Positions 8,884 through 55,847 of a stretch of 64,000 nucleotides of DNA are shown here, in pieces. The stretch spans positions 14,328 through 78,327 of the forward strand of contig JBDKRG010000011.1 of NCBI GenBank assembly GCA_039683515.1, given 5' to 3'. The translations under genes were made by a program, and so were the position numbers. The notes under the pieces were generated by a model. It was not told where the DNA came from and did not search any database. It was given only the letters and a program-made list of their open reading frames with translations. Origin of the DNA: Candidatus Sumerlaeia bacterium (GTDB taxonomy: Bacteria > Sumerlaeota > Sumerlaeia > MVZB01). How positions within the stretch are numbered: the stretch's first letter is position 1; the number at the start of each line of letters is the position of its first letter.

Positions 8884-9312
8884 TCAGGCAGCCTGCGCGT
8901 TTCCCTTCGAATTTCTCAGGCTTTGTTCGATGATCTGGACGAGCTCGAGGTCGGGTTCGGATTCCACGACGATCTTGTCGATATATTGATGGAGGTCCAG
9001 GCGCGTGAAGGCCCAGTCCTTGAAGGTATGGTGCGCGATGATGTGGCCCTGGTCGTCCTTGCCCCAGTAGACGGCGTGCCAGTTGTGGCCGCCGTGGACG
9101 AACTCGAGCTTTTGACCGCGGCGCAGGGAATCGATCGAGGACGGATGATGGGCGATCGTGGCGGGGGTCGGAGCGGGGCGAACGGTTTCATCGCCGTGAT
9201 CGGCGTCGGGCTTTTTTTCGCCCGGGGGCTTGTGTTCGCGGCCGGCGTTGGCGTCCCATTCCTCCTTCAGCACGTCGTATCGCATCAACTTCTCGACATC
9301 GAAAGTATCCAT
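8884..9312 (-). CDS. Hypothetical protein (142 aa; His-rich C-terminal region)
   Basis: The track ORF 8884..9384 extends through a repeat element. The plausible start is MDTFDVEKLM, preceded by GGAGGTG. No recognisable family (HGGHNWHAVYWGKDDQGHIIAHHTF). Confidence 0.45.
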   Translation of the reverse strand: MDTFDVEKLMRYDVLKEEWDANAGREHKPPGEKKPDADHGDETVRPAPTPATIAHHPSSIDSLRRGQKLEFVHGGHNWHAVYWGKDDQGHIIAHHTFKDWAFTRLDLHQYIDKIVVESEPDLELVQIIEQSLRNSKGNAQAA

Positions 9313-11906: not shown

Positions 11907-11967
11907 TCGAATGGACGAAACGGGCCGAATGGACCGAATGGACCGAATGGACCGATTTGAACGGACC
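11907..11967. repeat. Tandem decamer (GAATGGACC(G/A)) x about 5 in the dppB 5' leader
   Basis: tcgaatggacgaaacgggccgaatggaccgaatggaccgaatggaccgatttgaacggacc. Confidence 0.8.
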
Positions 11968-17160: not shown

Positions 17161-17455
17161 GTCGCAGAGGGGCAGAGATTGGCAGAGAGCGCGGAGAAGA
17201 ACATATTTTTCTTCTCTGCAAAACTCTGCGTTCTCTGCGACAAAATCTTGCTTTGAATATATTCCTGTCGCGGAGTGGCAGAGAGCGCAGAGAAAAACAT
17301 TTTTTCTTCTCTGCAAAACTCTGCGTTCTCTGCGACAAAATCTTGTTTTGAATATATTCCTGTCGCGAAGGGGCAGAGAGCGCGGAGAAAAAACATATTT
17401 TTCTTCTCCGCATCTCGGCAAAACTTCGCGTTCTCTGCGACAAAAGTTTTATTCA
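17159..17455. repeat. Tandem array of 3 units of approximately 95-107 bp, each an internal hairpin (GTCGCAGAG...CTCTGCGAC family)
   Basis: The units begin at about 17159, 17267 and 17360. The shared core is gcagagagcgc(g/a)gagaa(a/g)aacat(a)tttttcttctctgcaaaactctgcgttctctgcgacaaaatcttg(c/t)tttgaatatattcc. It lies between the convergent hflX and MFS genes. Confidence 0.85.
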
Positions 17456-18726: not shown

Positions 18727-18862
18727 GGATCACACCTGCAAAAAAACCTGAACAGAAAGAAGAGATGAGACATGAAAGATGAGAGATGAGATCGAAATCC
18801 CATCCCCCACACCTCAACCCCAACATAGTAGCATCGCGCGCGCGGAGGTTCGATGAATTTGA

Positions 18863-19411
18863 TCAGGCGCGGTTCTTGACGTAAATGACGGCGTCCTCGC
18901 GCGTGCCGTCGGGGCGGGGCTCGCCGCAAGGGATGACAAGCTCGCGGGTAAAACCGAGCCGCTCGGGAATTTTCCAGCTTTTCGTGTTCGATAGCGCGGC
19001 CCGAATGCGAATCTCTCCGGCGCCGAGTTGGTTGATCGCGTATTCGGCGACCGCCCCGACCGCTTCGGTCATGAAGCCGCTGCCGGATTTGCGTGTGTCC
19101 ATCCAGTAGCCGATCTCAAAGCTCGGGATCGCGAGGTCCTTGGGACGGATGCCGATGAAGCCGACAAAATCGCCTGTTCGATTTTCCCGGATGGTAAAAC
19201 GGAATTCGCGCATCGGGTCGTCGGACTCGAGCAGGCGCGCAATATTTTTTCGCGTGTCCTCGCCTGTCGGCACAGGGTTGACCCACGGCATATAGCGGCT
19301 CAGCGCGGGAAGGCTGGCGAGGATCGCCGCGTGGGCCGCCTCGGCATCGGCGGGCTCGGCCCGGCAAAGCGTCAGGCGCGGAGTACGGAGTACGGGGGAC
19401 GAGTCATGCAT
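18863..19411 (-). CDS. GNAT family N-acetyltransferase (RimJ/RimL-like)
   Basis: 182 aa with the RimJ/L-type LTLCRAEPADAE...FEIGYW acetyltransferase fold motifs. Confidence 0.8.
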   Translation of the reverse strand: MHDSSPVLRTPRLTLCRAEPADAEAAHAAILASLPALSRYMPWVNPVPTGEDTRKNIARLLESDDPMREFRFTIRENRTGDFVGFIGIRPKDLAIPSFEIGYWMDTRKSGSGFMTEAVGAVAEYAINQLGAGEIRIRAALSNTKSWKIPERLGFTRELVIPCGEPRPDGTREDAVIYVKNRA

Positions 19412-19421
19412 GGCCGGAAAC

Positions 19422-20066
19422 CTAAACGACGCGGTTGACCACCTGCTTGACGCCGCTCATGGACGAGAGATCCCTGAGCAGGCGCTGCGCCTTGGCGATC
19501 GAACCGGTGAACGAGACGTTGACGACCAGGTTGCCGTCCTTGTCCTGGCTGATTTTTGCGCCGCAGGCGTCGGCGCGCTCGATGAGGAATTTTTCCTGGA
19601 TGCGCTGGTAGATCCATTCGTCGTTCTGCGCGAGGATCCGGAATTGATGCTTGATGCGGCCGCGGACAATGATCCTGTTTTCGACATAGCCCATGGCGTG
19701 CAGGATGAGGAGGGCCAGCACCGTGCCGATGATCGCCAGCAGGTAATGCTGCGAGCCGGCGAACACGCCGAGCGCGGCGACGACCCAGACCGTCGCGGCC
19801 GAGGTCAGGCCGTGGATCGCCTCGTGACGGTCGCGGATGATCGTGCCCGCGCCGAGGAAGCCGATGCCCGTGACGATCTGCGCGGCGATTCGGCCGGGGT
19901 CCCCGCCGATCACGATTGACGCATACGTGAACATGGCCGAGCCGATGGCGATCAACATGTTCGTGCGCAGGCCGGCGGGCTTGTGCTGAAGCTCGCGCTC
20001 GAGCCCGAGCGCGGCGCCGCACAGCGCCGCGATCAGGAACGCGGGGATGAAGTGGAGATCGCTCAT
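19422..20066 (-). CDS. mgtC: MgtC/SapB family membrane protein
   Basis: An MgtC N-terminal 4-TM domain (ALCGAALGLERE, GIGFLGAGTI) is followed by an ACT-like C-terminal domain. Confidence 0.9.
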   Translation of the reverse strand: MSDLHFIPAFLIAALCGAALGLERELQHKPAGLRTNMLIAIGSAMFTYASIVIGGDPGRIAAQIVTGIGFLGAGTIIRDRHEAIHGLTSAATVWVVAALGVFAGSQHYLLAIIGTVLALLILHAMGYVENRIIVRGRIKHQFRILAQNDEWIYQRIQEKFLIERADACGAKISQDKDGNLVVNVSFTGSIAKAQRLLRDLSSMSGVKQVVNRVV

Positions 20067-22243: not shown

Positions 22244-23898
22244 TTCTTCTGATCCAGCTGCTTTTGCAACCGTTCCAATTTTTGAAGGCGCTGCCGGGAC
22301 TCGACGTCGGGGGTCGGCTGGGGCGGCGGCGCGAGTTCCACCTTGCCGCCGGCGACGGGCGCGCCCTCGACCTGCAGGACCACGGTCTCGAAATTCTGCG
22401 GCTGGTAACGGAAATTCATCGCCATCGGGTTCTGGTTGAGCCGGGGGACAAGATCGGGGAAGAGCGGCAGCGCGCTGGAGTGGAAATCGCCGACCAGGCG
22501 CAGCGGCATGGCCTGCATCTGCGCGTTGATGAAGTCGTGGAATTGCGCGAGCGGCAGCTGCGCGTACCAATTCGAGAAAATCACGACGTCGCCGGGCTGG
22601 AGGGTCGACCAGATGCTCTGCGGCAGGTACTTGACCGCGCGGCCCGACCAGAAGATCGCCTTGGGGGGGCCGACTTCCGCGTCCACCTTCTCGTTGTAGG
22701 ACTCGTTCGTGAAGACGCGGCCGATCGAGGCGGCGGGCATTTCGGCGACGCGCTCGGCGGCGAGCTTGAAATCCTCGAACGGCTGGGTCTGGCTCCACGC
22801 GACGACGCCGGCAAAGACCAGGGCGTAGGCGATCGCCGGCCCGGCAACCGCGGCGAAGCGCAGCCGATTGGACTCGCAACGGCGCTGCCACGTCGCGAAA
22901 CCGTGGCCGGCGAAGACGCAAACGAGCGGAACCAGCGGGAACAGGTAACGCTCCTGGTACGACATGAACGCCGACTGGAGGGCGAGGATCGCCAGCATCA
23001 GCGCGAGGCCGATCCAGCCCGCCCAGCGCAGCCGCCACGTCGACCAGTTGACGCGAAACAGGCCGTACAGGAAAAAGCCAAACAGCCCCCACGTCACGAA
23101 ATACGGCCCGCGCATGACGAATTCCTCGACCATCATCCAGTAGTCGATCGGCCGCGTCGCGCGATCCTCGATCTGGCGGAAATGCGTCAGGAGCGGCGTG
23201 ATCCCCTCGCGCGCGAGCCACAGCGGCACGGCAAGCCACGGGAGGATGGAGAGGCAGTCCTGAGTTCTGAGTCCTGAGTCCTGAGTCTTTTTCGCAAACA
23301 TGCGCCACGCCATCACGGCGGCGATCGGGATCAGGAGGAAAATGCCCTGGTAGCGGGTCAGCGTCGCCAGCGTGCCGAGGAGCGAGGCGATCAGCAGCCA
23401 GCGCGAGCCGGCCTTCGGGTCGGGCGCGATCGGCCGGCCCTCGCTGTGGATGAACTGGTCGGGGCGCCACGCCGCGACGGCGAGCGCCACCGAAGCCAGC
23501 GAGCCGCTCCACAGGGCGACCATCAGCGCGTCGGTCATCGGCTGAAGGCTCCAGCGCATCGGCATCGGGCTGACGATCCAGGCCACGGCGGCCCACCGCG
23601 CGGCGCGCCGGCCGAAGAGCGTTTTCGTCAGCGCCATGATCGGGATCACGGCCAGCGCGCCGGCAAGGAACGAAACCAGCCGGCCGGCGTTTTCGAGCCC
23701 GACGCCCGGGATCCACGCAAACAGCCGGGCGACGATGGCGTAAAACGGGGGCCAGTAACTCAGGCCGAAACGGAAGGTGTCGAGCGCGAGGACGCCGTCG
23801 GTGTAGGCGCCGTTGGCAAGCGGCAGGAAAAACCCGCGCCAGGCGAGCGCCGCTGCGACTGCGATCAAATCGTCACGGAGTTTGACGGGACGTGCCAT
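22240..23898 (-). CDS. Glycosyltransferase family 39 (PMT/ArnT-like polytopic membrane glycosyltransferase)
   Basis: 552 aa with about 12 transmembrane segments and a PMT_2-type N-terminus (LIAVAAALAWRGFFLP...YWPPFYAIVARLF). It contains the internal heptamer repeat GAGTCCT x4 (23256-23283), which encodes TQDSGLRTQD. Confidence 0.8.
   Translation of the reverse strand: MARPVKLRDDLIAVAAALAWRGFFLPLANGAYTDGVLALDTFRFGLSYWPPFYAIVARLFAWIPGVGLENAGRLVSFLAGALAVIPIMALTKTLFGRRAARWAAVAWIVSPMPMRWSLQPMTDALMVALWSGSLASVALAVAAWRPDQFIHSEGRPIAPDPKAGSRWLLIASLLGTLATLTRYQGIFLLIPIAAVMAWRMFAKKTQDSGLRTQDCLSILPWLAVPLWLAREGITPLLTHFRQIEDRATRPIDYWMMVEEFVMRGPYFVTWGLFGFFLYGLFRVNWSTWRLRWAGWIGLALMLAILALQSAFMSYQERYLFPLVPLVCVFAGHGFATWQRRCESNRLRFAAVAGPAIAYALVFAGVVAWSQTQPFEDFKLAAERVAEMPAASIGRVFTNESYNEKVDAEVGPPKAIFWSGRAVKYLPQSIWSTLQPGDVVIFSNWYAQLPLAQFHDFINAQMQAMPLRLVGDFHSSALPLFPDLVPRLNQNPMAMNFRYQPQNFETVVLQVEGAPVAGGKVELAPPPQPTPDVESRQRLQKLERLQKQLDQKK
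23256..23283. repeat. Heptanucleotide tandem repeat (A)GTCCTG x4 (one unit AGTTCTG) inside the GT39 coding sequence
   Basis: cagtcctgagttctgagtcctgagtcctgagtc. The same heptamer recurs at 48112-48153 and 48292-48308. Confidence 0.85.
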
Positions 23899-33176: not shown

Positions 33177-34532
33177 ATGGCCGTCAATGCCTCATCGACC
33201 GGCGCGAACGAGCGGGCGGAAACTCCGCAATCCGCAATCCGCAATCCGCAATCGGCTTCGCCGGAGCGCGACTACCATGTCGCGTTCTTCACGAACACCT
33301 ACCGGCCGTTCGTGGGCGGGGTGGCGCTGTCGGTCGAGCTGTTCCAGCGCTACCTGACGGCGCTCGGGGACCACGTCACGGTCTACGCGCCGCATTTCGA
33401 CGGCGAGGCCGCCGCCGAGGACGAGCCCAACGTCCAGCGCCTGCCGGCCATCAAGCATTTCAACGACACCGACTTCAGCCTGCCGCTGCCCGTCTCGTTC
33501 CAGATGCTCCAGGATTTCCACGACATCCCGTTCGACGTCGTGCACGTGCATCACCCGTTTTTATTGGGTGAAATGGGGATGCACCTGGCCCGCCAGAGGC
33601 GGCTGCCGCTGGCCTTCACCTACCACACGCAGTACGAAAGCTACACGCACTACGTGCCGATGAACCGCGAGCAGGCCGAGCGCACCATCCTGCGCCACAC
33701 GCACGAGTTCTGCGACCTGTGCGACCTCGTGATCGCGCCGACCTACGACATCAAGCGTGCGCTGGTCGAGCGCGGCGTCAAGACGTGGATCGAGGTCCTG
33801 CCGACCGGCGTCGAGCTGGGCCGCTTCGAGGAGATCGACGCCGCCGGGGCGCGCCGCCGGCTCGGGATCGAGCCCGGCGACCCGGTCCTGCTGCACGTGG
33901 GCCGGCTGGCGGCCGAGAAAAACCTCGAATACCTGCTGCGCGCGGCCACGATCGTCCTGCGCGACAACCCGACGGCGCACCTCGTTATCGCGGGCGAAGG
34001 CAAGCTCCAGGACCAGCTGCACAAGATGGCCGCCGAGGCGCCCGGCGCCGGGATCCCGGACCGGATCCATTTCGCCGGGCTGCTCACCGGCAAGCCGCTC
34101 GACGAAATCTATGCCGCCGCCGACCTGTTCGTGTTCTCCTCGCAGACGGAAACGCAGGGGATGGTGGTCGCCGAGGCGCTGGCGGCCGGGACGCCGGTCG
34201 TGGCGCTCGACGCCAACGGCGTGCGCGACCTCGTGCGCGACGACGAGAACGGGCGGCTGCTCGCGGCCGACGCGGACGAGGCGGCGTTCGCGCGCGCCGT
34301 GAGCGAATCGCTCGCCGACCGCCCGCGGCTCGACGAGTGGCGCCACGAGGCGCTCCGGACCGCGCGCATGCTCGGCATGGACATCCAGGCCCGGCGCCTG
34401 CACGAAATCTACGGCCAGCTCAAAATGATCCCCAACCACCGCCTCAAGCAGGAAACGGTGAGCTTCGGCCTCATCCGCAACTACTTCGAGACGGTGTGGG
34501 AAGACCTGGGGAAATGGTTTGAGAGAATCTAA
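33177..34532 (+). CDS. GT4 family glycosyltransferase (RfaB-like) with a heptamer repeat in its 5' coding region
   Basis: GT-B fold markers are present (FTNTYRPFVGGVALSV; E-x7-E region FSSQTETQGMVVAEALAAGTPVV). The ATG at 33177 is the only in-frame start. The track ORF 31839..34532 is a fused upstream extension. Confidence 0.85.
   Translation: MAVNASSTGANERAETPQSAIRNPQSASPERDYHVAFFTNTYRPFVGGVALSVELFQRYLTALGDHVTVYAPHFDGEAAAEDEPNVQRLPAIKHFNDTDFSLPLPVSFQMLQDFHDIPFDVVHVHHPFLLGEMGMHLARQRRLPLAFTYHTQYESYTHYVPMNREQAERTILRHTHEFCDLCDLVIAPTYDIKRALVERGVKTWIEVLPTGVELGRFEEIDAAGARRRLGIEPGDPVLLHVGRLAAEKNLEYLLRAATIVLRDNPTAHLVIAGEGKLQDQLHKMAAEAPGAGIPDRIHFAGLLTGKPLDEIYAAADLFVFSSQTETQGMVVAEALAAGTPVVALDANGVRDLVRDDENGRLLAADADEAAFARAVSESLADRPRLDEWRHEALRTARMLGMDIQARRLHEIYGQLKMIPNHRLKQETVSFGLIRNYFETVWEDLGKWFERI
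33225..33252 (+). repeat. Heptanucleotide tandem repeat CCGCAAT x4 within codons about 17-25 of the GT4 gene
   Basis: ctCCGCAATCCGCAATCCGCAATCCGCAATcggc. The unit length is not a multiple of 3. The same heptamer (reverse complement ATTGCGG) recurs at 36961-36987. Confidence 0.9.
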
Positions 34533-45837: not shown

Positions 45838-46743
45838 TTATTGAATATTCTGTATCTGTTCGCGGATCTTTTCCAGGATCGACTTCATTTCGAGGCCGAG
45901 GCCGGTCAGGGTGGTGTCGCGCGACTTGGACATGATCGTGTTGACCTCGCGCCCCATCTCCTGAAGCAGGAAGTCCAGCGCGCGGCCGGCCGAGTCGTCG
46001 CCGCCGCCGGCGAGCAGATCGTCGTAGCGGTCCAGGTGCGCCAGCATGCGGACGATCTCCTCGCTGATGTCGGCGCGGTCGGCGTAGAGCGCCACTTCCA
46101 TCTCGAGCCGGCCCGGCTCGAGGCGGGTCTTGATCTGCTCCTCGAGCTCGGCGAGGCGCTGGCCGAGCCGCTCGCGGTAGAGCGTCACGACCTCGTCCTT
46201 GCGCAGGGCGATGCCGGCGAGGCGCTCGCGAAGCTGGTTGCCGAGGTCGGAAAGCTGCTGGCCGAGGGCGCCCCCCTCGCGCGCGCGGTCGCGGTCGAAC
46301 GCCGCAAAGGCTTCGTCCAGCGCGTCCAGCAGCGCCGCCCACTGCGTGTTTTCGTCGATCTCGGCCGGAACGACTTCCAACACCCCGGGAAGGCCCGCGA
46401 CCAGTTCCAGCGGGACCTCGCTGGCGGCGACGGCGTGGCGCAGCTCGTTGAGCCGCTCGATATACGAATGCGCCAGCGGCAGGTTGAGCTGGACTTCGGG
46501 CCGGGCCTGCTCGGCGAACAGGCAGCGGACGCGGCAGTCGATCTTGCCGCGCGCGATGCGCCCCTTGAGCAGCCCGCGCACCTTCATTTCGAGCCCCGCC
46601 AGCTCGCGCGGCAGCGAGACCGAGGCGTCGTGGAACCGGTTGTTGACCGAGCGGAGCTCGACCGTGAACTGCCCCAGCGCGGTCTCCGTGCGAACCCGGC
46701 TGAACCCGGTCATGCTGCGCAGATTGATTTCCCGATTGCCCAT
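45838..46743 (-). CDS. yicC: YicC family stress-induced protein
   Basis: MTGFSR...FTVELRSVNNRFHD N-terminal signature and a DUF1732-like C-terminus. Confidence 0.85.
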   Translation of the reverse strand: MGNREINLRSMTGFSRVRTETALGQFTVELRSVNNRFHDASVSLPRELAGLEMKVRGLLKGRIARGKIDCRVRCLFAEQARPEVQLNLPLAHSYIERLNELRHAVAASEVPLELVAGLPGVLEVVPAEIDENTQWAALLDALDEAFAAFDRDRAREGGALGQQLSDLGNQLRERLAGIALRKDEVVTLYRERLGQRLAELEEQIKTRLEPGRLEMEVALYADRADISEEIVRMLAHLDRYDDLLAGGGDDSAGRALDFLLQEMGREVNTIMSKSRDTTLTGLGLEMKSILEKIREQIQNIQ

Positions 46744-46766
46744 GATCTATCGCTCCCCGCCTGTTC

Positions 46767-46945
46767 GTGCGTCGTGCGTCGTAATCGTAATCGAGATTCG
46801 ATCACCCGTCACCGACTGTAATGCAACTCACTCGTTGGCCGAAAGTGTTTTGTCGAAGAATGGGTCCTATGGGACCGATGGGACCGATGGGACCTATGGG
46901 TTCATAGGATTCGATCAATTCGATTACGATTACGACGCACGACGC
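46767..46945. repeat. Long inverted repeat (arms about 29 bp, CGTGCGTCGTGCGTCGTAATCGTAATCGA) enclosing a loop that contains the 9-mer tandem ATGGGACCG x4
   Basis: The left arm is at 46767-46795 and the right arm at 46917-46945. The loop includes gggtcctatgggaccgatgggaccgatgggacctatggg. Confidence 0.8.
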
Positions 46946-46966
46946 ACGAGCACGAGCACGAATGCG

Positions 46967-48106
46967 CTACTTCTTGTCTTTCCAGAACAGCTCGACCCAC
47001 GCGACCTTCACCACCGCGGCGATCGGGACGGCCACGATCATCCCGCCGATGCCCCCCTGCGCGCCGATCACCAGCGCGGCCATGACCATCAGCGGATGCA
47101 GGCTGGCGTGCTTGCCGACGATGTACGGCTGCAGGATGAACCCCTCATTGGCCTGGATGGCCATGTTGCCGAGCAGGAGAACGCCGAGATAGGCGCCGCG
47201 CGCATTCCAGTCCGGATACTGGCTGCTGAACAGGATCCATAACACGCCCGGAATAAATCCGGCCAGCGGCCCCAGGTACGGGATGAAGTTGAGCAGGCCC
47301 GCGACAAACCCGATCAGGACGGCATACTGCCGCATCCCGATGACCGCCAGCAGGAGCGCCATCAGGCAGCCGTTGATGGCGCAGACGGTCAACTGGCCGC
47401 GCAGGAAGCCGCCGACCGCGCGATCGGCCTGGACCATCACTTTCCAGATCCGCTCGCGGTCGCCCGCCGGCAACAGCTTTTTCAGGATCGGCGGGATGTG
47501 GTCGAAATCGACAAGCAGGTAAAACGCGATAATGCCGACGATCGACAGCGACCCGGCGAGGCCGATGATCGACGCGATGCTGATCGCGAGGCCGCCCGCG
47601 ACGCTTTTCATCGCCGTCACCGAACCGGTGGCAACGGTGCGGCCCGGGGCGTTGCCGCCCGAGAACCGCCTGAGGAGGTCTTCGATCTGGCCGAGGTCGC
47701 CGCTCAGCGAATCCTTGATCGCCGAGCGCGTCGGCTCGTCGAGCCAGGCCGCCCCCCACTTGTCAACCATCACCGTCAGCCATGCGAGCAGCTCATGGAC
47801 GCCCGCGGAAAGCTGCTGGTACAAGACCGGGATGAGCCACAGCATCAGGCCGATCAGCACGGCCACGACGAGGCCCGCCAGGACAAAGATGCCCGCGACG
47901 CGCCCGAGCCTGAGCCGGCGCTGAACGAACAACACGACGGGATGGAAGACGTAAGCGAGGATGAGCGCCAGCAGGAACGGCCCGATCACGTCCATGATCG
48001 TCGTCAGGATCGGCCCGACCTGCCGCAGGATGAAAACGGCCAGCGCAACGATCGCGAACGCCGCGAGCGTCTTGCGCCATGCGAGGGGAAGAGAGTTTTC
48101 CGTCAT
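46967..48106 (-). CDS. AI-2E family transporter (PerM/YdiK, UPF0118)
   Basis: The real start is MTENSLPLAWRKTLAAFAIV... The upstream 62 codons of the track ORF are a translated heptamer array. About 8 transmembrane helices. Confidence 0.85.
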   Translation of the reverse strand: MTENSLPLAWRKTLAAFAIVALAVFILRQVGPILTTIMDVIGPFLLALILAYVFHPVVLFVQRRLRLGRVAGIFVLAGLVVAVLIGLMLWLIPVLYQQLSAGVHELLAWLTVMVDKWGAAWLDEPTRSAIKDSLSGDLGQIEDLLRRFSGGNAPGRTVATGSVTAMKSVAGGLAISIASIIGLAGSLSIVGIIAFYLLVDFDHIPPILKKLLPAGDRERIWKVMVQADRAVGGFLRGQLTVCAINGCLMALLLAVIGMRQYAVLIGFVAGLLNFIPYLGPLAGFIPGVLWILFSSQYPDWNARGAYLGVLLLGNMAIQANEGFILQPYIVGKHASLHPLMVMAALVIGAQGGIGGMIVAVPIAAVVKVAWVELFWKDKK

Positions 48107-48111
48107 GAAAA

Positions 48112-48153
48112 GAGTCCTGAGTCCTGGGTCCTGGGTCCTGGGTCCTGGGTCCT
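48112..48153. repeat. Heptamer array GAGTCCT x2 + GGGTCCT x4 immediately upstream (6-48 nt) of the AI-2E transporter start
   Basis: gagtcctgagtcctgggtcctgggtcctgggtcctgggtcct. On the coding strand this is AGGACYC x6, each unit containing the SD-like core AGGA. Confidence 0.9.
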
Positions 48154-48240
48154 GAGGACGAAGTTTGTTGGCTCGGGCGGAATTAGTCAAGTCCCTGCTT
48201 AGCGGTGCGTGTCCGTGCCCCGTCCGTGTTTGTCCGTGTA

Positions 48241-48270
48241 CAACAAAAATCCCAGGGCGTTGACCCTGGG
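48241..48270 (-). terminator. Rho-independent terminator of the IclR regulator gene
   Basis: Minus strand: CCCAGGG-tcaacg-CCCTGGG followed by ATTTTTGTTG. Confidence 0.7.
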
Positions 48271-48314
48271 ATTGAATTGTTTCCCTCAGCACTCAGGACT
48301 CAGGACGATTCTTC

Positions 48315-49121
48315 TCACTTCGCGATCGGAACGACGTTGCTTTCGGTGAGGCCGAAGTGTTCGCGCGAGAGTTCCTGGGTGACGCTGCGGAGGAACGTGC
48401 CGATTTCGATGAGCTTGGCCGGGGTGTTGCGGGCGGTCGGGCCCGTGACGCTCATGCCGGCCAGGCAGCGGCCCTGGCCGTTGAGGATCGGCGCGGCCAC
48501 GCAGCTGACGCCGATGATGTTTTCCTCGTGGTCCTCGCTGAAGCCGCGCAGGCGGATCGAATCGAGCTCCTCCATGAGGCGGGCCTTGTCGGTGATCGTG
48601 TTGGCCGTCAGGGGCTTCAGCTCGACCTTGTCGAGCATCTCCTCGCGCTGCTCGTCGGTCATGTAGGCCAGGATGACCTTGCCGACGCCCGAGCAGTAGA
48701 TCGCCTGCTGGCGGTTGGGGATCTCGAACAGGCGCAGCGGGTGCCACCCCTCCATGATGGACAGGTAAACCAGTTCCTTGCCCTGGATGCGGGCCAGGTT
48801 CACGGTCTCTCCGAACTGCGAGAGCACACGCTCCATATATGGATGCGCAATGCGCACGACATCCTGCCGTGCCTCGGTGATGCGCCCCAGCTCGATGAAC
48901 TTGGTTCCCAATTCATACCGGTTGGTCCGCTCGTCCTTGCGCAGGTAGCCGAGCTTGTCCAACGAGCACAGGATGCGGTACAACGACACGCGCGAGATGC
49001 GCGGGTACCGCTCGACGAGCTCCATGTAGGTTAACCCACGCGGCCGCTCGCGGAAGACCTCCAGAACCTCGAAGGTCTTCATGATCATCGGAACGAGGTT
49101 TTTCTCAAGTCTCTGATTCAT
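48315..49121 (-). CDS. IclR family transcriptional regulator
   Basis: An N-terminal wHTH is followed by an IclR effector domain (GVSCVAAPILNGQGRCLAGMSVTGP). Confidence 0.85.
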   Translation of the reverse strand: MNQRLEKNLVPMIMKTFEVLEVFRERPRGLTYMELVERYPRISRVSLYRILCSLDKLGYLRKDERTNRYELGTKFIELGRITEARQDVVRIAHPYMERVLSQFGETVNLARIQGKELVYLSIMEGWHPLRLFEIPNRQQAIYCSGVGKVILAYMTDEQREEMLDKVELKPLTANTITDKARLMEELDSIRLRGFSEDHEENIIGVSCVAAPILNGQGRCLAGMSVTGPTARNTPAKLIEIGTFLRSVTQELSREHFGLTESNVVPIAK

Positions 49122-51621: not shown

Positions 51622-52863
51622 ATGACTGTCGACCGCGCGTTGATTCACAAGATCGCCGCCGAAGAGCTTGAGGCCGGCGCCAAATTCCTGATGGACATGA
51701 TCCGCTACCCGTCGACCCCGGGCCAGGAAAACGAGCTGATGCACTTCATCGAGAAGGAAATCAAGCCGCTGGCCGACAAGGTCGAACGCGTCGGGTTCCC
51801 GGCCGATTTCCGCAACGACCCCGAATACTCGTTCCCGATCGAGGGGATCGACTACGAGGGGCGCTTCAACCTGCGCGTGGTCATCGGCGACGACAGCGTC
51901 AAGTCCCCCTCGCTCATCTTCAACGCGCACACCGACGTCGTCCCGGCGTCCGAAAACCAGCCGCGGGCGTTCGACCCCGAGCGCAAGGACGGCGTCATTT
52001 ACGGCCGCGGCGCGTGCGACGACAAAGGGAGCGTGGCCACGCTCTACATGCTGGCGCGCATCCTCAAGCGCCTGCCGGCCAAGCCCAAGGCCAAGATCGT
52101 CCTGCACCTGGTCAACGAGGAGGAAAACGGCGGCAACGGCACGCTCAACATGATCCGCACGGGCGAGAAGGCCGACGCATTCGTCGTCATGGAGCCCACG
52201 CGCGGCCGCCTGATGCCGTCGGTGCGCGGGGCGGTCTGGTTCCGCGTGAAATTCCGCGGCCTCGCCGGCCACGTCGGCAGCGCCGGCAAGACCGTCAGCG
52301 CGCTCAAGCTCGCCGTGGAGGCGATCGAGCTGCTCGAGCAGTTCCACGCCGAGACGCTCGCCGCCAGCCGCGGCATCCAGTTCTTCGACGACTACCCCAA
52401 CCCGATGCCGATCAACTTCGGCCGCCTCAACGCGGGCGTGTGGCCGGCCTCGGCCCCCAACGCGGCCGTCCTCGAGGGCGTCATGGGCCTGCTGCCCAAC
52501 CTCACGCGCGAGCAGATCATGGAGGGCATGGAGCGCACGCTGCGCGAGCGCGGCTCGGAAAAGCTGCGCGACAACTTCAGCTTCGAGTTCATGTACCGCC
52601 ACGACTCGCACGTGACCGACCCGGGCCACAAGGTCGTCAAGACCCTCCAGAAGGCCGTCCAGAACGCCGGCATGTCGGGCGAGCTGACCGGCATGGTCGC
52701 CTCGTGCGACTCCAACTACTACTCGAACTTCCTCAAGATGCCGGGCGTGGTCTTCGGCCCCGGCGACCTGATCGTGGCCCACGGCGCCGACGAGCAGATC
52801 GAAGTCGCCCAGCTGGCGCAGGCCGCCTCGGCCATGGCGCAGCTCGCCTGCGAATGGGAATGA
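51622..52863 (+). CDS. M20 family metallopeptidase/deacylase (ArgE/DapE-like)
   Basis: HTDVV, GACDDKG and NEEENGG metal-binding motifs. Confidence 0.85.
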   Translation: MTVDRALIHKIAAEELEAGAKFLMDMIRYPSTPGQENELMHFIEKEIKPLADKVERVGFPADFRNDPEYSFPIEGIDYEGRFNLRVVIGDDSVKSPSLIFNAHTDVVPASENQPRAFDPERKDGVIYGRGACDDKGSVATLYMLARILKRLPAKPKAKIVLHLVNEEENGGNGTLNMIRTGEKADAFVVMEPTRGRLMPSVRGAVWFRVKFRGLAGHVGSAGKTVSALKLAVEAIELLEQFHAETLAASRGIQFFDDYPNPMPINFGRLNAGVWPASAPNAAVLEGVMGLLPNLTREQIMEGMERTLRERGSEKLRDNFSFEFMYRHDSHVTDPGHKVVKTLQKAVQNAGMSGELTGMVASCDSNYYSNFLKMPGVVFGPGDLIVAHGADEQIEVAQLAQAASAMAQLACEWE

Positions 52864-52898
52864 TGAAAGATGAATGATGAATGATGAATGATGAAAAC

Positions 52899-55718: not shown

Positions 55719-55847
55719 ATGCAGTAGCCCGAGCGTCAGCGAGGGACTCGGCCGATACGCAATCAGAACCGCAAGTTGAAATTCGAAATCTGAACGAATT
55801 GAATTCCACTAAGGCGAAGTCCCTCGCTGACGCTCGGGCTACTGCAT
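55719..55847. mobile_element. MITE-like palindromic element: perfect 30-bp terminal inverted repeats flanking a 69-nt AT-richer loop
   Basis: The left arm is ATGCAGTAGCCCGAGCGTCAGCGAGGGACT (55719-55748). The right arm is its exact reverse complement (55818-55847). The loop contains gaaattcgaaatctgaacgaattgaattcc, related to the AT-rich element family. Confidence 0.7.

Follow-up and report, generated by a model that had tools for sequence, protein, structure and literature searches.

In the 64,000-nucleotide (nt) stretch of Candidatus Sumerlaeia DNA analysed here (contig JBDKRG010000011.1 of assembly GCA_039683515.1; hereafter the window), a tandem array of six heptamers lies directly upstream of a gene for an AI-2E family (PerM/TqsA-like) permease. 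We read this array, at positions 48112–48153 on the minus strand, as a slippage-prone heptanucleotide microsatellite that expanded over the 5′ untranslated region (5′UTR) of the permease gene, with its last unit serving as the Shine-Dalgarno (SD) site and with an effect on expression that is at most graded and probably small. The probability of this reading is, in our estimate, about 0.6; slippage as the mechanism, the SD use of the proximal unit and the smallness of the effect are the parts of it that we infer. The tract is one of the hexamer and heptamer arrays that, built from a few recurring units, appear to populate intergenic spacers throughout a Candidatus Sumerlaeia subclade, typically against stop or start codons and often as inverted pairs, and (AGGACTC)n is widespread in other environmental bacteria as well. 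Unit number and unit type would turn over quickly, as replication slips and a single variant of the unit expands in concert. The leader length and the number of AGGA motifs lying upstream would change with it, whereas the SD-to-AUG spacing would not. Because that spacing would stay unchanged, the effect on expression is expected to be graded and probably small, with no on/off switch.

By sequence inspection, the minus strand from 48153 to 48112 reads (AGGACCC)x4(AGGACTC)x2, followed by a TTTTC linker (48107–48111) that joins the array to the ATG at 48106–48104; the plus strand accordingly carries GAGTCCT twice and GGGTCCT four times. Tandem Repeats Finder (TRF) reports the tract as 48114–48154, with period 7, 5.9 copies, 97% matches and a score of 75. 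In a census of period-7 arrays it scored 32, where a Markov model expects 0.2 arrays of score ≥10 per 64 kb. The six heptamers directly 5′ of the AI-2E start, which an earlier, sequence-only reading of this DNA had pointed out, are thus real and far above chance; that reading was also right that every unit holds AGGA and that the tract abuts the start codon. The array has the hallmarks of a microsatellite, namely near-perfect head-to-tail 7-nt units, a length beyond chance expectation, and units that vary between relatives. An assembly artefact was ruled out, since the NCBI metagenome-assembled genome (MAG) contains the array and so do Logan assemblies made independently from two runs, and a G-quadruplex was ruled out by the composition of AGGACYC/GRGTCCT, which has no runs of three or more G spaced for one. 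The exact leader sequence gave 0 matches in the JGI metagenomes, and no Rfam 15 covariance model matched positions 46700–48400, even at E ≤ 1. Over the 64-kb window, Rfam matched only a tRNA and Acido-Lenti-1; the latter small RNA is here matched in a Sumerlaeia genome (27117–27162, 48 bits, gathering score 37).

The array supplies one plausible ribosome-binding site. GGAG, GAGG or AGGA occurs at −18 to −4 in 31 of 46 called genes of Sumerlaeia relatives, versus 3 of 46 in a control interval (−40 to −26); the lineage uses SD-led initiation. This usage implies a canonical anti-SD, the 16S rRNA lying outside the window. The proximal unit, AGGACTC at 48112–48118 on the minus strand, places its AGGA (48118–48115) 8 nt from the ATG, and with its complementarity and a position 5–10 nt before the start it qualifies as an SD. 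It is the sole AGGA at that distance, as the other five end 15, 22, 29, 36 and 43 nt upstream and fail on spacing. Judged from sequence and spacing, the proximal unit is most likely the gene’s ordinary single SD site. The sequence-only reading had described six phased SD-like sites; the AGGA in each unit and the lineage’s use of SD sites bear this out, but only the proximal AGGA lies within SD range. It had further supposed that a change in unit number would alter SD-to-ATG spacing or promoter-to-start geometry, and neither supposition is supported. Units change upstream of a fixed proximal unit and TTTTC linker, AGGACTCTTTTCATG, which is identical in the three strains compared (the window and the Logan contigs L002 and L003), so that the spacing cannot change with unit number; and because the putative promoter lies upstream of the tract, unit number would alter only the length of the 5′UTR. 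The repeat, with the promoter placed as below, is found in none of the positions that define a phase-variable switch: within an open reading frame (ORF), between promoter elements, or between SD and start.

Taken alone, the leader is predicted to be open and unusually unstructured. Its minimum free energy (MFE) is −14.8 kcal/mol, compared with a shuffle mean of −22.8 kcal/mol, and is weaker than that of all 200 shuffles (z = +2.57); the leader is also free of start codons. The last unit, its AGGA lying 8 nt from the AUG, would supply the SD; the other five would be passengers, presumably tolerated in their present orientation because they hold no start codon and leave the leader unusually unstructured.

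The permease gene itself (46967–48106, minus strand, 379 amino acids (aa)) matches AI-2E_transport (PF01594) with E = 1.7e-41. Its start agrees with the protein of the source Candidatus Sumerlaeia MAG in NCBI (P0001, 100% identity) and with independent Logan gene calls, and the N-terminus, MT(E/D)..LPLAWRKTL, is conserved with the relative L004. The 42-nt tract is in frame with the permease ORF, and the longest ORF begins at a GTG (48292) inside the partner array described below, upstream of a terminator. An N-terminal extension or leader peptide was considered and rejected, since the NCBI and Logan calls and the conserved N-terminus support the ATG at 48106.

Upstream lies a gene for an IclR-family regulator (48315–49121, minus strand, by gene call and domain match), followed by an intrinsic terminator at 48248–48273 on the same strand (11 pairs and a T tail) that is conserved in L004. 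Between this terminator and the tract we place a putative minus-strand promoter at 48162–48190, with a −35 element TTGACT (48190–48185), a 17-nt spacer and a −10 element CAAACT (48167–48162). L004 has TTGACA-N17-CAAACT, matching TTGACT-N17-CAAACT of the window, within an otherwise diverged spacer. A scan for consensus promoters upstream of the tract gave no sigma-70 match, and since the scan missed the site, it is the conservation in L004 on which the assignment rests. Transcription would then start about 8 nt before the array, which would make up nearly the entire 5′UTR.

The relatives of the locus show that the tract turns over. Two Logan contigs from the same sample, L134 and L002, match the window sequence as far as they extend; both break within the tract and overlap by only 21 nt, which fits branching at a heterogeneous site or k-mers shared with other arrays. 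In L003, whose permease is 98% identical (aa), at least seven units (AGGACTC x4, AGTACTC, AGGACTC x2) precede the identical proximal unit and linker. Close strains therefore differ in the tract, as the sequence-only reading had suspected, L003 having AGGACTC/AGTACTC in place of AGGACCC. The four distal units of the window all differ from those of L003 at one position (T in L003, C in the window), and because it is the same position in all four, the turnover is better explained by loss and re-expansion of a unit variant than by four point mutations. L004 (86%) has no array and a single AGGACTTCTTTATG at the same spacing, in a leader of similar length that holds only gcAGGACTtctttATG, and it has the same terminator. 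L005 (67%) has no leader array either, and carries (AGTCCTG)x5.4 directly after the iclR stop, in the place of the window’s partner array. L012 (63%) has (AATGATG)x3.3 at the iclR-stop position and (TTTCTCA)x3.3 before the permease start, and the more distant Sumerlaeia loci (L007, L010, L011) have no arrays. A search of GTDB species genomes for permease orthologs returned only a 31%-identical Nonomuraea match, and hence no close genome; a search with IclR homologs for the partner array of the 98% strain recovered only the strain identical to the window.

Turnover is, by such comparisons, locus-dependent. A 7-kb contig of the L003 strain (L013, about 95% identical) retains the unit number of the array at 18761–18791, while a 95-nt tandem repeat at 17180–17412 (2.4 copies in the window) has two copies fewer there, and the GNAT acetyltransferase gene at 18866–19456, near whose 5′ end a (CGGAGTA)x2.4 duplication lies, is absent. 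It is this coexistence of a stable array with a changed repeat and a missing gene that points to dependence on the locus.

The tract is far from solitary in the window. Arrays of period 7 with about three or more copies number eight, those of period 4 four, and those of periods 5, 6 and 8–12 between none and two. At a looser cut-off there are 15 period-7 arrays versus 0.2 expected, the expectation being that of a first-order Markov model of the window (score ≥10, 30 simulations, maximum 2 arrays), and 12 of the 15 fall within the 17% of the window outside the ORF map (p = 2e-7). The unit families recur in both orientations: AATGATG with five arrays, ACTCAGG/ACCCAGG with three, AATCCGC and ACGACGC with two each, and AGAGATG with two in the census plus the array at 18761–18791, which only TRF reported. 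Window arrays follow stop codons about as frequently as they precede start codons. In seven independent cases the TGA-bearing strand (GAATGAT, GATGAGA, GTCCTGA) is the sense strand after stops and its complement the sense strand before starts (p = 0.016). In two families the trailer strand also bears ATG, so that part of this strand bias may be explained by selection against upstream starts in leaders.

Hexamer, octamer and nonamer arrays also occur in the window. Two nonamer arrays, 11908–11955 (x5.3) and 46860–46900 (x4.6), share a GGACCGA(A)TG core, and the pattern GGAC-N5-GGAC-N5-GGAC is found twice versus 0.01 expected. At 52858–52895, a (GAATGAT)x5 array starts where an M20 peptidase gene ends, overlapping its final codons and stop, and a hairpin resembling an intrinsic terminator comes next; the same layout of stop, array and terminator recurs at iclR in the window, L005 and L012.

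Two tracts lie inside glycosyltransferase genes. The sequence-only reading had noted an in-frame heptamer tract in a GT39 gene, which TRF and a domain match confirm at 23256–23287: on the minus strand, within a GT39/PMT_2 ORF, the coding strand carries (CAGGACT)x4.6, equivalent to (AGTCCTG)x4.6. It encodes TQDSGLRTQD in a loop of variable length; orthologs at 64–66% identity have related peptides of different length in the same loop (TQDSGPGTQ, SGLRTQDS), and the tract has the same length in a 99% strain. The second, (TCCGCAA)x4.3 at 33224–33253, lies in the N-terminal coding part of a GT4 glycosyltransferase gene (ATG 33177, GT4 domains from residue 46). A change of one unit would frameshift GT4, because no other in-frame start precedes the conserved fold, and the gene is therefore, by its sequence, a candidate phase-variable gene. 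The in-ORF tracts of these two genes are better candidates for phase variation than the leader tract.

The leader array has an inverted partner in its own spacer. The partner, at 48286–48306 on the minus strand, consists of two GTCCTGA units and one GTGCTGA unit and starts 8 nt after the iclR stop. The sequence-only reading had listed two units at 48292–48308; two perfect units do stand within 48286–48306, accompanied by the variant one, but their orientation opposite to the leader had gone unnoted. Positions 48114–48133 and 48287–48306 form a 20-nt inverted pair, 90% complementary, with 153 nt between the arms. Leader and partner are thus two opposite arrays of the same unit in one intergenic region, and four more such pairs were found in the window. 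One flanks the spacer that separates the AI-2E stop from the yicC start: its trailer-side arm, just after the AI-2E stop (46920–46952), and its leader-side arm, before yicC (46762–46794), match over 33 nt at 97% and consist of tandem hexamers and heptamers, TCGTGC(G) and TCGTAA, whose RNA is predicted to form a perfect stem of 30 bp (z = −7.2). In the L005 ortholog, the spacer between permease and yicC is 52 nt long and holds just (TCGTAA)x3. Inverted GAATGAT pairs stand between convergent genes (34536-64/34591-619) and between divergent genes (63349-87/63424-58). The stretch 34535-65 is identical to the reverse complement of 63425-55, a variant unit GAGTGAT included, which suggests copying between loci as opposed to independent slippage. 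The remaining pair is a perfect 24-nt inverted repeat of period-8 units of the ACGCCAAGA type, with 10 nt between its arms (31214–31237/31248–31271). A miniature transposable element was rejected as the source of such pairs, because paired arms enclose loops that show no relation to one another, and because L004 keeps the terminator and putative promoter yet has no arrays. The window also contains a non-repetitive inverted repeat at 55719–55753/55813–55847 (35 nt, 94%, arms 59 nt apart).

The same unit is common in other bacteria. A scan of JGI metagenomes for (AGGACTC)x3 returned at least 120 stretches, and none of the 120 compared encodes a protein closely related to those of the window. Among the matches listed (80 stretches with (AGGACTC)x3), the G+C content ranges from 0.36 to 0.71. 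The taxonomy of the contigs was sampled only; in that sample, one accD cluster has members labelled Dormibacteraeota and Bryobacteraceae. Of the 66 arrays with sufficient flanking sequence, 18 have a long ORF that begins no more than 20 nt downstream of the AGGACTC end and 12 an opposite-strand ORF that stops there, versus 8 and 5 for the mirrored arrangements (30 versus 13 in total, p = 0.014); five of seven predicted starts tested match independent gene calls exactly. Hairpins of the type (GAGTSCT)n-loop-(AGGACTC)n are common among these metagenome arrays, in some cases with T runs after them, and several of the contigs also hold AATCCGC and ACTCAGC arrays. In the hairpins of L016, L080, L049 and others, GTGCTGA units often make up the left arm and AGGACTC units the right, so that every 7 nt contain one G-G mismatch; the third unit of the window’s partner array (48286–48292) is the same GTGCTGA variant. 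A further lineage offers a clear variable-number locus: orthologous genes for FlaA1/EpsC-like NDP-sugar epimerases have 12 (L019), 11 (L030), 9 (L053), 3 (L075) and 9 (L092) AGGACTC units in their leaders, followed by an AGGGGG SD of their own.

The notion that the tract is a device specific to the permease gene is undercut from three sides: the window contains a further 14 arrays of period 7, the AGGACTC-family unit also stands downstream of stops and within an ORF, and at least 120 unrelated metagenome contigs carry (AGGACTC)n.

Also at this locus, three phased CACGGAC motifs, spaced by 10 and 11 nt, occupy 48211–48238 on the minus strand, downstream of the iclR terminator and ahead of the −35 element. 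Analogous motifs are the GTCCA x4 of L004 (~603–637) and the GGAC(C/T)C x4 of L005 (~9183–9215), both phased, so that all three orthologous spacers hold three or four phased GGAC/GTCC motifs (period 9–11) between the iclR terminator and the permease promoter. The motifs differ in strand and sequence context between the three spacers and are possibly a binding array for a regulator. The tract was provisionally rejected as a binding site for the adjacent IclR: it is without the typical palindrome, and iclR faces a divergent RraA/aminotransferase operon.

Several points weigh against an expanded microsatellite with a single SD at its end. Only one truly different strain (L003) entered the comparison, as an assembled contig that begins inside the tract. 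The promoter is placed by its conservation in just one relative, its −10 (CAAACT) is poor, and the consensus scan missed it. The array at 18761–18791 has the same unit number in both strains, and so not all arrays are fast. Moreover, purely local slippage fails to account for the return of a few identical units at many loci and in other phyla, for the inverted pairs and for the orientation bias relative to genes. This recurrence, pairing and bias give a hint of selection, or of some process that goes further than passive slippage.

The pairing in particular raises an alternative in which the leader and its inverted partner zip together in transcripts that read through from iclR, burying the SD and AUG or creating an RNase III site, so that only promoter-initiated mRNA would be translated and unit number would tune the stem. 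The arms do form a 20-nt inverted repeat of 90% complementarity, and the read-through RNA is predicted to fold strongly (MFE −91.5 kcal/mol, z = −5.2), with the arrays paired and the stem running through the last units to the AUG, while the promoter-initiated leader alone is open. In addition, four other inverted pairs bracket spacers of the window, one of them giving the 30-bp perfect stem at the other end of the permease gene (z = −7.2); metagenome contigs repeatedly show (GAGTSCT)n-loop-(AGGACTC)n hairpins, a number of them with T runs; and the 5′UTR heptamer repeat of Haemophilus influenzae hmw acts via an RNase III-cut hairpin (PMC12721329). However, a good intrinsic terminator stands between the arms, and read-through may be rare; the partner has two to three units against six in the leader; L005 has the partner array without a leader array and L004 has neither, meaning that the pair is not obligatory; and complementarity arises automatically when one unit family stands in two orientations. 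We therefore regard the zipper as unlikely. A wider version of it, which we hold to be quite unlikely, is that inverted heptamer arrays, including (AGGACTC)n/(GAGTCCT)n, are a widespread and evolvable intergenic module, of which the AI-2E tract is one arm and not a stand-alone repeat. Arrays set against stop and start codons in fixed orientation would pair across the spacer in read-through RNA or single-stranded DNA; this pairing would insulate neighbouring genes by hiding the downstream SD/AUG, building terminator stems or providing RNase III sites, and slippage would tune the strength of the insulation.

The model of the sequence-only reading, in which slippage among six phased SD sites switches or strongly tunes translation through SD-to-ATG or promoter-to-start geometry, is very unlikely. 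It can draw on the AGGA in every unit, on the use of SD sites in the lineage and on the differences in unit number and sequence between strains, and the upstream SD-like sites could conceivably act as standby sites. Yet five of the six AGGA end 15–43 nt from the ATG, beyond SD range, the fixed proximal unit and linker make the spacing independent of unit number, and the putative promoter lies upstream of the tract. Furthermore, one L003 unit, AGTACTC, has no AGGA, and AGGACTC-family arrays stand after stops, in an ORF and in hairpin arms, where an SD role is impossible. Least probable of all is an array of reiterated GGAC sites for a DNA- or RNA-binding protein that regulates the gene together with the phased CACGGAC motifs. 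A role of this kind has been proposed for TAACTGA repeats; phased GGAC occurs at 48211–48238 and in the 9-mer arrays (11908-55, 46860-900), and the L004 and L005 spacers hold three to four phased GTCC/GGAC motifs. A limited set of units common to loci and species, with a biased orientation relative to genes, would likewise suit a binding site. What speaks against it is that no candidate binding protein is at hand, that the unit families (AATGATG, AGAGATG, AATCCGC) are mutually unrelated in sequence, that arrays vary freely in length and in type of unit from one close strain to another, and that the motif periods differ (7, 9 and 10–11 nt).

For the permease gene itself, the expanded microsatellite matters little, since its SD is most likely a single, ordinary one with which a microsatellite ends. 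The bearing is rather on what heptamer repeats do: a small set of units returns at different loci, in different species and even in different phyla; arrays lie close against stops and starts, with the TGA strand after stops and its complement before starts; and inverted pairs would zip the intergenic spacer shut in read-through RNA. The tract is a fairly ordinary case of a known but poorly understood kind of repeat, and the broader pattern is the more interesting part.

Among known systems, the short tandemly repeated repetitive (STRR) heptanucleotides of cyanobacteria (Calothrix PCC 7601) consist of a few 7-nt units tandemly repeated at many intergenic sites of one lineage. The window resembles them, as far as a likeness by description goes, in having a few specific 7-nt units repeated at many intergenic sites, and differs in the units and the phylum. 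Heptamers are the commonest class of long simple sequence repeats (SSRs) in SSR-rich bacteria (Mrazek 2007, as summarised in PMC4679880). As those repeats are described there and in PMC4692102, the present arrays share with them the near-perfect head-to-tail 7-nt units, the above-chance length, the concentration in particular lineages, the mostly non-coding location and a presumed origin in polymerase slippage. Unlike long heptanucleotide SSRs generally, the AGGACYC unit carries an SD core and its array ends 5 nt before a start codon. A literature search, judged by titles, found no paper on such repeats in Sumerlaeota.

The closest described pattern is that of the GGGAATC arrays of Xanthomonas. 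These and the GGGGAYT arrays of Nostoc are 89–93% intergenic and near a neighbouring ORF, include 70–75 inverted pairs capable of forming stem-loops, and vary extensively in length and sequence between close relatives (Rehm et al. 2015, PMC4692102); the arrays of the window are likewise intergenic, in inverted pairs and variable between relatives. In contrast, the Xanthomonas and Nostoc units are G-rich and form G-quadruplexes, whereas AGGACYC is without G runs, and the window has several mutually unrelated unit families. Position relative to genes recalls the TAACTGA direct repeats of marine Beggiatoaceae, cyanobacteria and Bacteroidetes, which stand in two to six copies and one orientation a few nt upstream of starts, overlap the ribosome-binding region, are scattered across phyla and have no proven function (MacGregor 2015, PMC4679880). 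TAACTGA, however, is not complementary to 16S rRNA, whereas AGGACYC contains AGGA, and it is found mostly before starts, whereas the window arrays stand after stops about as often.

Two further systems help to place the leader tract and the in-ORF tracts. The (ATCTTTC)n of H. influenzae hmw1A/hmw2A is a 5′UTR SSR whose variable copy number works as a rheostat, not as a frameshift switch; a G-rich arm located downstream completes a long hairpin with it, which RNase III cleaves (Rapun-Araiz et al. 2025, PMC12721329). The likeness lies in a heptamer SSR that differs in copy number within a 5′UTR, here putatively transcribed; unlike hmw, the present leader alone is predicted to be unusually unstructured, its sole complementary partner lies upstream of the putative promoter, and a hairpin within the 5′UTR was not found. 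The GGTGCCC heptanucleotide in pflu0185 of Pseudomonas fluorescens is an in-ORF contingency locus in which a change of one unit shifts the frame (bioRxiv 10.1101/2024.05.01.592015). It is relevant to the GT39 and GT4 tracts; the leader tract is non-coding, and a frameshift switch does not apply to it. With these arrays, the Sumerlaeota subclade can be added to the lineages in which intergenic heptamer repeats abound, alongside Xanthomonas, the heterocystous cyanobacteria, Burkholderia and Beggiatoaceae.

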